This document shows positions 27,640 to 30,835 of a stretch of 64,000 nucleotides of DNA, one piece after another; the stretch's first letter is position 1, and the number at the start of each line of letters is the position of its first letter. The translations under genes were made by a program, and so were the position numbers. The notes beneath the pieces are model-generated. The model was not told the DNA's origin, did no database searches, and was given only the letters and a program-made list of their open reading frames with translations. The DNA comes from a virus (taxonomy: Duplodnaviria > Caudoviricetes), in IMG/VR virus record IMGVR_UViG_3300050645_000010, positions 2,234-66,233 of that record. One strand, given 5' to 3'.

Positions 27640-28872
27640 ATGCCTACGGCTTTAGACGCATTGGAGTTCCTCGCACAACAGCTTGGAAACGTGGTGAAGT
27701 ATGACGCCAGCGGCAACCCGTCGATTTTCGTGCCGTTCCCGAAGATCAAAGCGATTGATTTGGACGCGAGTTTGCCGGATCATGTACACCCCGCTTTCAT
27801 CGTGAATGGCGTGGAATATGACAGGCTCCTTATCGGGAAGTACATGGCATCGGAACTTTCGGCTGGCGGTACGCTATACAGTTTGCCGAACATGCCGCCC
27901 CGCGTTGAATTCACAGCAGATACATTCCTTACGCGCATGCGCGCGTTCGGAGGCGGGGCAAGCGGGAAGACAGTTGCGGAGAGCGGCCTCATTCTGTTGA
28001 TGGCAAAAAAGTACGGGTGGGTCCCGAAGGGCAACAACAACTACGGCGTCGATTACCGCGACGGTACGATGTGGGAATTGGCGAAGGCGTACACGGTCGG
28101 GACGAAGCGCGTATTTCAGGGCGTTGAATATAGCTGCTTGGTCGCGCACACGTCGGCATGGGAGAACAGGCCGGACATAAAGCCGACGTATTGGCAGCGC
28201 GGAAACCGCATCGGCGGCGTGCCTGTTGCATCGCAGATTTCGAGCACTGTACCGAACGGATACAACACGCTTACGGGATCTGGACCGATGAGTTGGATGC
28301 TGGACGGCACGGCCCGCAGCCTCGCGGATATTGTGGGCAATGCATATGAGCAAGACTACGGGTACAGGATTTTCGACGGCGAGATTCAAATCATTCAGGA
28401 CAACAACGCAGCACATCCCACCGCTGACTTGTCGGCGGGCAGCGCGGCATGGCGCGCAATCTTGCCGAACGTCGGGGACAATGGGCATACGTTGGTTGCC
28501 CCCGGTACACCGGGCACGCTCAAATGGGATGCGAGCGCGGCGACGAGCGGATACCCGATCCTTGATACGGTCGTGAACATTCGAACGACCGATTCGGCGT
28601 CGCGTGCGTTCAAAGACCTTACGCGGAACACGACCAACGTACCTTACGTGCCGTATATCCTGCAAGAGCTTGGGTTGTTCCCCATCAGCGGCGACACAAC
28701 GCAAGGCAGCGTATACATTCGCAATGATGCGGGCGCGGAGTTCTTCCCGCGGCGCGGCGGCTACTATAAATACGCGAGCAGCGCGGGGTTGGGCTGCGAG
28801 AGCGTCAACGGCACGCGCGGCGGCACTTACATCTACAACGGCGCGCGGCCCGCTTTTGTAGAACTGGCATAA
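27640..28872 (+). CDS. DGR target protein, Mtd-like CLec (FGE-type) fold; probable receptor-binding protein
   Basis: LIGKYMAS...LYSLP, ADIVGNAYE, C-terminal RRGG...GARP variable region matching the TR. Confidence 0.9.
   Translation: MPTALDALEFLAQQLGNVVKYDASGNPSIFVPFPKIKAIDLDASLPDHVHPAFIVNGVEYDRLLIGKYMASELSAGGTLYSLPNMPPRVEFTADTFLTRMRAFGGGASGKTVAESGLILLMAKKYGWVPKGNNNYGVDYRDGTMWELAKAYTVGTKRVFQGVEYSCLVAHTSAWENRPDIKPTYWQRGNRIGGVPVASQISSTVPNGYNTLTGSGPMSWMLDGTARSLADIVGNAYEQDYGYRIFDGEIQIIQDNNAAHPTADLSAGSAAWRAILPNVGDNGHTLVAPGTPGTLKWDASAATSGYPILDTVVNIRTTDSASRAFKDLTRNTTNVPYVPYILQELGLFPISGDTTQGSVYIRNDAGAEFFPRRGGYYKYASSAGLGCESVNGTRGGTYIYNGARPAFVELA
28738..28854 (+). repeat. DGR variable repeat (VR), 117 bp
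   Basis: Aligns ungapped to 29369-29485 with 13 mismatches, 12 of them at TR adenines. Confidence 0.97.
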
Positions 28873-28893
28873 CTGGATACTGAGCACTGGAAA

Positions 28894-28915
28894 GGGGCGC
28901 GCTTATGCGCGCCCC
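28894..28915. promoter_or_regulatory. DGR cis-acting hairpin/cruciform downstream of VR
   Basis: GGGGCGCGC-TTAT-GCGCGCCCC, perfect 9-bp stem 21 nt after the target stop codon. Confidence 0.85.
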
Positions 28916-28977
28916 CGGTCCCCCGTTCCCCGTTCCCCTCACTTAGCGGTCAAACAAGCATCGCGGGAGGTTTATAT

Positions 28978-29346
28978 ATGGCTGACTTAGCTATAAAAAC
29001 TAAAATATTGGATATGTTGCCGTACATGGATGACAGGCTCAAAAATTTCCCGAGGGAACAGAAAATGTCGTTGACGGTGCGCATACGGAACACCGGATAC
29101 GACATGCTGGAATTGAGCAGCAACATAGCGTCGGGATATTTCAATGCGTCAACGGTCAACGCATTGGACAAGAAAAACGCGGAGTTGAAATTGTACATAG
29201 AGTACGCAATGAAGCGACAATACATATCGACGCACCAATATAAGGTTTGGCTTGCGATGCTGGTTGAGATCGGAATGATGATCGGTGGGCTGAAAAAGGC
29301 ATTAGACGCGAAGCGTGTTCGCAATAATGCGGGGAATAAGCCATAA
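28978..29346 (+). CDS. avd: DGR accessory variability determinant
   Basis: 122 aa helical protein, KNFPREQKMSL and EIGMMIGGL motifs, located between VR and TR. Confidence 0.9.
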   Translation: MADLAIKTKILDMLPYMDDRLKNFPREQKMSLTVRIRNTGYDMLELSSNIASGYFNASTVNALDKKNAELKLYIEYAMKRQYISTHQYKVWLAMLVEIGMMIGGLKKALDAKRVRNNAGNKP

Positions 29347-29368
29347 GTTTGTGCGCCTTTGGTGTTGT

Positions 29369-29485
29369 GAGTTCTTCCCGCGGCGCGGCGGCAACTATAA
29401 CAACACGAGCAACGCGGGGTTGGGCTACGAGAACGTCAACAACACGCGCGGCAACACTAACATCAACAACGGCGCGCGGCCCGCT
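29369..29485 (+). ncRNA. DGR template repeat (TR), 117 bp
   Basis: 11 AAC codons and 31 adenines in the VR frame; matches VR. Confidence 0.95.
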
Positions 29486-29557
29486 CTACCACCTGCCAGA
29501 TGTTGCGCGGCTACGGCTACGCTCCCAGCGCGGGTAGAGGTAAAGGGGCTTATTTCC

Positions 29558-29585
29558 TTTGACGATGCGGGAACGCATCGTCAAA
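29558..29585 (+). other. 12-bp stem with GGAA tetraloop in the TR-RT spacer
   Basis: TTTGACGATGCG-GGAA-CGCATCGTCAAA. Confidence 0.75.
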
Positions 29586-29653
29586 AACATGTAGTGCCGC
29601 GAAAACGCCCGAAGGAGGCGACGCAGAAATGCGACGCGCGGCGAGGTGGCAAT

Positions 29654-30835
29654 ATGCGTAAGGAAACGAACGTGATCGAGAGGATAGCGGATTTTGATAA
29701 TCTGCTGAACGCGGCAAGGTTGAGCTCAAAGGGGAAGCGGTATCACAGCGAGGTTTTGAGCTATCAACAGAACATCGGCGAGAACCTTCTTACTTTGGAA
29801 AGACGGTTTTTGAACGATGAGTATGTGACGGGGCCGTATCACGAGCATTACGTATTTGTACCCCAATGGAGGCTGGTTCATATACCGCCTTTCAACGACA
29901 GAGTAGCACAGCAAGCGATATATCAGGTCATCGGACCGATTCTCGACAAGCAGTACATTTACGACAGTTACGCATGCAGGAAGGGCAAGGGATCGCTTGC
30001 CGCAGCGGACAGACTGCAATATTGGCTTCGGCAGATAAGCAGAAAACCGGACGCGGAGAAATGGCATGCTTGCAAGATGGACGTTGCGAAGTTCTTTTAC
30101 CGGATCGACCATGATAGTACGTTGTCGATATTATCCCAATATGTCGATGACCGCATATTCATGAACACGATGGAAAGGATTATTCGATGCGAGCATACGC
30201 CGTTCGGATTACCGGAGGGCAGAACATGCAGAAACACGACAAGAGAAGAGAGGTTGTTTAATGTCGGTATCCCGATAGGAAGTTTGATGAGCCAGACGGT
30301 CGCAAACATGGACATGAACGAAGTTGACCAGTATGCGAAACACGTTTTGCACATTCACTTCTATGTTCGATATATGGATGATATTGTGATACTGCACAAC
30401 GATTTGAAGCAGCTTCACGAATGGATGGAGGCAATTAAATCATTCATGTATGATCGATTGAAGTTGAAGTGCAATAGCAAGACAGGCATTGTTCAATTAT
30501 CACACGGAATTGAATTTGTCGGCTATCGCATTTGGGCAACCCATAGGCTCCTTCGGAAAAAGACAGTTCAGCACATGAAAAACAGCTTGAAGCAACTCGT
30601 TCAAGTGTATGCGCACGGAGATATTCAACTTGATTACGTGCAGCATGTGCTTTCGTCGTACTTCGGATTGTTGAAGCATTGCGACAGCTATTCGATTCGA
30701 CGATGGATTTCAGACAACATCGTTTTTTCGAGGGACGAAAAGACAAACGATGTACCAGAGTTGCAAAGCGGAGAAATTGGCTCGTTGATTCGAGATACGG
30801 AGCCGGAAGAGGGTGATTTTTGTGAGACCGCATAA
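29654..30835 (+). CDS. DGR reverse transcriptase, 393 aa
   Basis: SD GAGGTGG; FNDRVAQQA, SYACRKGKG, MDVAKFFYRIDH, GIPIGSLMSQ, YVRYMDD, EFVGYRI. Confidence 0.97.
   Translation: MRKETNVIERIADFDNLLNAARLSSKGKRYHSEVLSYQQNIGENLLTLERRFLNDEYVTGPYHEHYVFVPQWRLVHIPPFNDRVAQQAIYQVIGPILDKQYIYDSYACRKGKGSLAAADRLQYWLRQISRKPDAEKWHACKMDVAKFFYRIDHDSTLSILSQYVDDRIFMNTMERIIRCEHTPFGLPEGRTCRNTTREERLFNVGIPIGSLMSQTVANMDMNEVDQYAKHVLHIHFYVRYMDDIVILHNDLKQLHEWMEAIKSFMYDRLKLKCNSKTGIVQLSHGIEFVGYRIWATHRLLRKKTVQHMKNSLKQLVQVYAHGDIQLDYVQHVLSSYFGLLKHCDSYSIRRWISDNIVFSRDEKTNDVPELQSGEIGSLIRDTEPEEGDFCETA

Follow-up and report, generated by a model that had tools for sequence, protein, structure and literature searches.

The DNA analysed here comes from IMG/VR record IMGVR_UViG_3300050645_000010 (66,233 bp; Caudoviricetes) and corresponds to its positions 2,234-66,233; this whole stretch of 64,000 nt is called the window below. 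It contains a complete diversity-generating retroelement (DGR), consisting of a template repeat (TR) and variable repeat (VR) pair with adenine-specific differences, an Avd protein and a DGR-type reverse transcriptase (RT). The target gene (27640..28872, + strand, 410 aa) is tail-fibre/adhesin-like and carries a CBM_5_12 module; Baseplate_J and Mu gp48-like genes are found upstream of it (ORF list and Pfam in both cases). The VR (28738..28854, + strand, 117 nt) ends in a GC-rich, IMH-like segment, ...GGCGCGCGGCCCGCT, which is also where the TR/VR homology stops. It is followed by four phased CTG motifs on the + strand (at 28864, 28873, 28880 and 28887, spanning 28864..28889), by the DGR target hairpin/cruciform (28894..28915; 9-bp all-GC stem, loop TTAT), and by a four-tract array (28912..28938), whose + strand, C5-GGT-C5-GTT-C4-GTT-C4, is i-motif-capable and whose minus strand carries a G-quadruplex (G4) motif. 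Further along the + strand come the ribosome-binding site of avd, GGGAGG (28965..28970, recognised by sequence inspection), avd itself (accessory variability determinant, 28978..29346, 122 aa; Pfam bAvd PF22296, E 1e-13), the TR (29369..29485, with 31 adenines), a spacer RNA region between TR and RT (29484..29641), and the RT gene (29654..30835, Pfam RVT_1), for which the ATG at 29654 is the probable start in a frame that is open from 29315. The spacer region gives a weak match to the Rfam RT-14 RNA (RF02921): the full model is aligned at 29484-29641 with 40.7 bits, below the gathering score of 48.1 (E 6.6e-4), and this segment is probably a structured DGR spacer RNA. GC skew is positive throughout the 66-kb phage (+0.04 to +0.24 per 3 kb, mean +0.17) and never changes sign; with the genes lying on the + strand, this would fit co-directional replication.

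The VR and the TR align without gaps and differ at 13 positions, 12 of which are TR adenines; the sole mismatch at a non-adenine TR position is 28770. Some 20 public runs, from about as many studies and sampled mostly from anaerobic digesters, contain the same stretch of DNA, and we compared the window with contigs of four of these runs. Two contigs from two other studies, record 4 of run X2 (28507-28990) and record 12 of run X4 (28832-29170), span both the hairpin and the array, while those of runs X9 and X11 leave 28696-28940 uncovered. The VRs of the other samples differ from that of the window at 17 positions. Sixteen are TR adenines and the 17th is again 28770, where the window VR has an A, and the TR and the other samples a C. 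As this C is found in contigs of two other runs, the A is a private point mutation of the VR in the window assembly, and not a DGR product. Neither of the two spanning contigs has a listed substitution or an indel in 28855-28972. The VR has thus varied at TR-adenine sites while hairpin and array stayed unchanged: target diversification by the DGR has taken place in lineages with a TTAT hairpin and four tracts, and judging from these assembled contigs the DGR has evidently been active in populations with the array. That the array does not vary between samples carries little information in itself, since the strains are nearly identical outside the VR. No RNA run containing the phage was present among the public runs found.

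For comparison, 398 loci with related RTs were gathered; TR/VR pairs were located by script in 194 of 240 loci of a first batch and in 126 of 156 loci of a second one, which yielded 172 non-redundant relatives. A blastn search of the phage against phage records returned no match, and the best RT homologue is 61% identical, so that the nearest comparison for the array is with relatives at 56-61% RT identity.

The hairpin is formed by GGGGCGCGC (28894-28902) and GCGCGCCCC (28907-28915) around the loop TTAT (28903-28906), with nine perfect base pairs, all G-C. It starts 39 nt past the VR end and 7 nt past the last CTG; in the relatives, the hairpin mostly starts 34-46 nt past the VR end, has a stem of 7-10 bp, and usually begins with GGG and has GC closing the loop. 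It follows the VR and not the TR: the homology between the repeats ends at 28854 and 29485, respectively, the sequence after the TR is unrelated, and no similarity was found between 28855-28977 and 29300-29660. A target hairpin/cruciform with the same stem and loop size, and with a GRNA loop consensus, was described for the Bordetella phage BPP-1 by Guo et al. 2011 (PMC3240598). The preliminary description had placed a DGR hairpin 3′ of the VR, and from its sequence and position, which matches that in 128 related DGRs, this hairpin is the homologue of the one of Guo et al. 2011 (PMC3240598). Like the BPP-1 hairpin, it is a GC-rich 9-bp inverted repeat with a 4-nt loop, located shortly past the end of the TR/VR homology and missing after the TR. 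Unlike it, the window hairpin has TTAT in place of GRNA and is preceded by the four phased CTG motifs, and its stem shares 4 bp with a G4-capable tandem array, a situation not described in PMC3240598.

The loop deserves attention. TTAT has the usual 4 nt, but violates the sense-strand consensus 5′-GRNA-3′, which is followed by 63 of the 69 four-nt loops in our first set of relatives and by 98 of the 128 canonical hairpins in the extended set. In BPP-1, the GRNA consensus is essential, and a CTTT loop nearly abolished homing (PMC3240598). Because TTAT breaks a consensus that is essential there, something may compensate in the window phage. Residues just downstream of the BPP-1 hairpin were altered in two constructs of the same study (PMC3240598). 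The VR of the window DGR was diversified between samples despite the TTAT loop. An association of non-GRNA loops with additional C tracts was considered and not retained: in a hand count, 3 of 16 relatives with a non-GRNA loop had an extra tract, versus about 7 of 63 with a GRNA loop, a difference that is not significant. An exact-pattern scan for the window hairpin returned only unrelated terminator-like hairpins. In 58 of the 128 relatives, a run of at least 4 T is found within 14 nt past the hairpin, and in these the target gene may use the hairpin as an intrinsic terminator as well; the window phage and its sisters have no such run.

The CTG motifs located between VR end and hairpin are, from their distribution, a family-conserved periodic array. 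At least three CTG are present in 116 of the 128 relatives, versus 3.6% of control segments, at a spacing of 7 or 8 nt (7-nt autocorrelation 0.45). The successive distances are 7, 7 and 8 nt in the family, and 9, 7 and 7 nt in the window. Phased motifs occupy the same interval in the close relatives L002, L163 and L164 and in most of the loci L001-L399, and no such array follows the TR. No description of them was found in Guo 2011 or Wu 2018.

The four C tracts occupy 28912-28916, 28920-28924, 28928-28931 and 28935-28938 and are separated by the loops GGT, GTT and GTT, exactly as first reported for 28912-28938; the overlap by 4 bp of the first tract with the hairpin arm of 28894-28915, announced at the same time, is also seen in the sequence, as four of its five C (28912-28915) are the final four base pairs of the 3′ stem arm. 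The minus strand reads G4-AAC-G4-AAC-G5-ACC-G5 (numbers being tract lengths), and fits the canonical G-quadruplex motif (G>=3 N1-7)x3 G>=3. No other quadruplex motif, defined as four runs of at least 3 with loops of at most 7 nt, exists on either strand of the 64-kb window. Dinucleotide shuffles of the window contain 2.2 motifs with runs of at least 3 and 0.01 motifs with four runs of at least 4, and when the local 180 nt were shuffled 20,000 times, the four-by-four form never appeared. Moreover, the + strand is G-rich genome-wide (skew +0.17), so that an array of C runs opposes the strand composition. Tandem Repeats Finder reports the array as CCCCGTT in 2.6 copies (100% match) and as CCCCCGGT in 2.5 copies. 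Since the array is thus called as a repeat, its non-randomness is that of a small duplication array, which alone is no proof of function.

We then considered what structures the two overlapping elements are predicted to adopt. The minus strand, folded as single-stranded DNA without a quadruplex term, forms the 9-bp hairpin at -19.0 kcal/mol (z -4.7). When the quadruplex term of ViennaRNA is included, the single minus strand is predicted to adopt a four-layer G4 abutting a 6-bp GCGCGC hairpin, at -37.6 kcal/mol, a value that comes from a rough energy model for G4 and concerns a single strand, not duplex DNA in the cell. The preliminary description had proposed that cruciform and G4 compete. The overlap and the preference for the G4 on a single strand go along with this, but the two structures are not exclusive in the energy model, as the 6-bp hairpin remains: predicted competition concerns three stem pairs only, and is partial, not all-or-none. 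The operon transcript carries the C-rich strand, which excludes an RNA G4 for the sense transcript. An extended cruciform, in which the CTG array would pair with the C-tract array, was rejected because shuffled flanks fold equally well (z +0.4 for DNA, +0.5 for RNA). Also rejected was the idea that the post-VR region pairs with, or resembles, the DGR RNA (avd 3′ end, TR and spacer), local alignment scores being within the range of shuffles. No Rfam family is found at the array site.

How far the array extends beyond this phage was examined in the relatives. Its sister group in the RT tree (support 100/100) consists of L163, L164 and L002, whose RTs are respectively 58%, 56% and 61% identical to that of the window phage. 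After the stem, L163 has CCCCC-GGT-CCCC, L164 has CCCCC-GTCT-CCCC and L002 has a single tract. The closest relatives therefore share the start of the array (stem-CCCCC-GGT/GTCT-CCCC), with only two tracts, or one. The preliminary description had advised a search of related DGRs for conserved tracts between hairpin and avd, and such conservation is not what we observe: the nearest relatives have 2, 2 and 1 tracts, and a motif located after the hairpin is found again only in L001. The window has 62 nt between the end of the hairpin and the start of avd, where 53 relatives have a median of 32 nt (mostly 26-38 nt). Post-hairpin periodicity at 7/8 nt, measured by autocorrelation, reaches 0.74 in the window, the highest value of 128 loci, against a family mean of 0.28, which is the baseline. 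From this comparison, the full four-tract form of the array appears to be restricted to the window phage among the DGRs compared.

When any quadruplex motif made of sense-strand C runs is counted, within -20..+160 of the VR end, four of the 172 non-redundant relatives have one. Shuffles of the relatives give 0.78 motifs, and four were reached in 0 of 300 rounds. The antisense counterpart, with the motif on the other strand, was found near the VR end in 0 of the 172. Three of the four relatives, L001, L085 and L153, fall with the window phage into one RT clade of nine members (support 100/96), so that 3 of the 8 relatives of the window phage in this clade have the motif, where 0.33 are expected and where three were reached in 0 of 3000 shuffle rounds. 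Sense-strand runs of at least 3 C near the VR end are also more frequent in the clade (mean 4.9, versus 1.9 elsewhere) while G runs are equal, and the GC content of the clade is 52-60%, against 50%. L001 is the only relative with the motif after the hairpin. Its hairpin loop is non-GRNA, and its array, a weaker one, has a unit, CCCGGTT, that resembles that of the window. In L085 and L153 the motif is made of a C-rich IMH and of CCCTGA array units. Their IMH (in the interval -20..+60 of the VR end) is CCCGCCCCCGCTCCC, and their CTG-array units contain C runs (CCCCTGA). As the motif of these two loci overlaps the TR-homologous IMH, it would also occur in the cDNA strand; and as they share the C-rich IMH by descent, the independent events are at most three. 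The recurrence of C-run motifs within the clade is suggestive of selection, or at the least of a propensity shared across the clade, and not of a one-off accident. Overall, the comparison of sequences lends weak support to a role of the array.

We lean, if by a small amount, towards reading the array as a lineage-specific tandem expansion produced by slippage, a largely neutral add-on rather than a part of the core machinery. Slipped-strand duplication is its most likely origin: the shared motif (stem-C, GGT, CCCC) would have been expanded by two units in the window lineage, and the resulting 3.5 units of CCCCGTT/CCCCCGGT would lengthen by about 23 nt the spacer between hairpin and avd, which normally measures about 32 nt. 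The array would then be dispensable for the basic retrohoming mechanism, and its action, if any, would be exerted on DNA, as an add-on to the hairpin. Three observations oppose the expansion. The motif is found in 3 of 8 clade relatives, with a similar unit at the same place in L001; the array runs against the strand composition, and an equally strong motif is otherwise missing from the phage; and the TTAT loop violates GRNA, so that compensation is possible. An unlikely alternative is that the antisense quadruplex (or its i-motif counterpart) has been selected in the clade as an enhancer of retrohoming, which would stabilise the unwound or extruded state or pause the fork, and may compensate for the TTAT loop. 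The array does abut the conserved target hairpin of an active DGR, the C-run motifs of the clade (4 of 9 members, in -20..+160 of the VR end) are all on the sense strand, with an excess restricted to C runs, and on single-stranded DNA the G4 is predicted to win over the full hairpin. The window loop, TTAT, may also be set beside the CTTT loop that nearly abolished BPP-1 homing (PMC3240598), and the orientation of the motif agrees with the lagging-strand/open-state model (PMC12875486). Against it, the position of the motif varies: the runs lie in the IMH and CTG array in L085 and L153, and after the hairpin only in the window phage and L001. The three closest relatives and about 98% of the family do without a four-tract motif, the clade is more GC-rich, and L085 and L153 count as one event by descent, leaving three at most. 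The array is lacking in about 98% of 172 related DGRs, and therefore cannot be a general requirement. The structural switch or strand-opening aid for retrohoming imagined in the preliminary description does not hold as a general requirement, given this absence and the one or two tracts of the nearest relatives; within the clade, where C-run motifs recur in 4 of 9 members, it may still apply. That an antisense G4 next to the target hairpin is a selected and recurrently evolved enhancer of retrohoming, which in the window phage compensates for the loop that breaks GRNA, is in our opinion doubtful.

Two other readings appear weaker. The units of 7-8 nt (GTTCCCC) might be read as sequence by the Avd-RT complex or by a host factor, as the CTG array might be, the G4 being incidental. 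The array has a period (8, 8 and 7 nt) equal to the one seen in the conserved CTG array (7, 7 and 8 nt), and L001 has a similar unit. The unit is nevertheless unlike CTG, no protein partner is known, and past the hairpin the rest of the family shows baseline periodicity (mean autocorrelation 0.28). We consider this reading improbable. Slightly less credible again is a role at the RNA level, in which the C-rich transcript would regulate avd-TR-RT expression as an anti-Shine-Dalgarno sequence, a Rho-loading site or a substitute for a U-tract. Its attraction is that, in the MFE fold, CCUC within the last tract is base-paired to the GAGG portion of the avd ribosome-binding site, with a similar pairing in L164, and that the window hairpin, at which no terminator is called, has no counterpart of the T-run (at least 4 T within 14 nt) of 58 of the 128 relatives. 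This pairing is missing in L163 and L002, and the energy of the duplex between spacer and Shine-Dalgarno sequence is no better than with shuffled spacers (z +0.85 in the window; mean z +0.16 over 53 loci). Pairing of the last tract with GGGAGG of avd was rejected on that basis, as composition explains it (z +0.85 against shuffled spacers). A promoter or an intrinsic terminator at the array was rejected too, none being called. Altogether, an RNA-level or promoter/terminator role of the array is not detectable in the sequence.

Returning to the expansion, the most plausible contribution of the array once it had arisen, if it makes one, can be pictured as follows, even if we think it rather unlikely to be real. 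In a reconstitution study published in PLoS Genet in 2026, editing was favoured when the sense strand was the lagging-strand template, and an open-state model was put forward, in which a secondary structure beside the IMH prolongs the single-strandedness of the target for cDNA pairing (PMC12875486). In the window phage, the duplex would be opened, for instance by a replication fork travelling with the genes. The antisense strand, which would be the template both for the leading strand and for transcription, would then fold into a four-layer G4 beside a 6-bp remnant of the hairpin, just beyond VR and hairpin. This G4 would hinder re-annealing or pause the fork, and the VR sense strand upstream would stay single-stranded for longer, allowing it to pair with the mutagenised cDNA. 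An opposite-strand G4 would have the same kind of effect as the stem-loop of the open-state model; unlike here, only the BPP-1 stem-loop is considered there, with no quadruplex (PMC12875486).

The route by which mutagenised cDNA enters the DGR target is still an unsolved problem. To our knowledge, the IMH and the hairpin are the only defined cis signals of DGRs. The window phage provides a naturally occurring variant of a DGR that is evidently active, with a non-consensus loop and a hairpin fused to a very strong quadruplex motif; as this motif is on the strand opposite to the one that pairs with cDNA, it offers a ready test case for the open-state idea. If the array proves dispensable, it would still follow that insertions are tolerated in the post-hairpin region and that the GRNA loop rule has exceptions.

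A parallel exists in Neisseria gonorrhoeae, where the pilE G4 is reportedly a recombination-initiating quadruplex for pilin antigenic variation (work attributed to Cahoon and Seifert, 2009/2013). Transcription of a small RNA from within the motif is said to be needed there, displacing the G-rich strand, and the quadruplex is said to drive RecA-dependent gene conversion. As at pilE, a single strong G4 motif lies here in cis beside a locus of programmed sequence diversification. Unlike at pilE, the G-rich strand serves here as template for the target-avd-RT operon, diversification takes place by reverse transcription, and no promoter-like site is seen on either strand: a sigma-70 consensus scan of 28600-29700, whose reach does not extend to other promoter types, returned none. 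Our literature search found no paper linking DGRs with quadruplexes, in agreement with the preliminary description, which knew of no G4 in a DGR. If the enhancer role is true, a quadruplex would for the first time be implicated in a DGR, and pilE would be joined by a second G4 that serves programmed diversification.

Lastly, among the relatives collected, two loci (L084 and L100) have RTs of this Clostridia-type family on contigs binned, in one and the same study, as an Alphaproteobacteria MAG and a Nanoarchaeia MAG; these may be mis-binned phage contigs.
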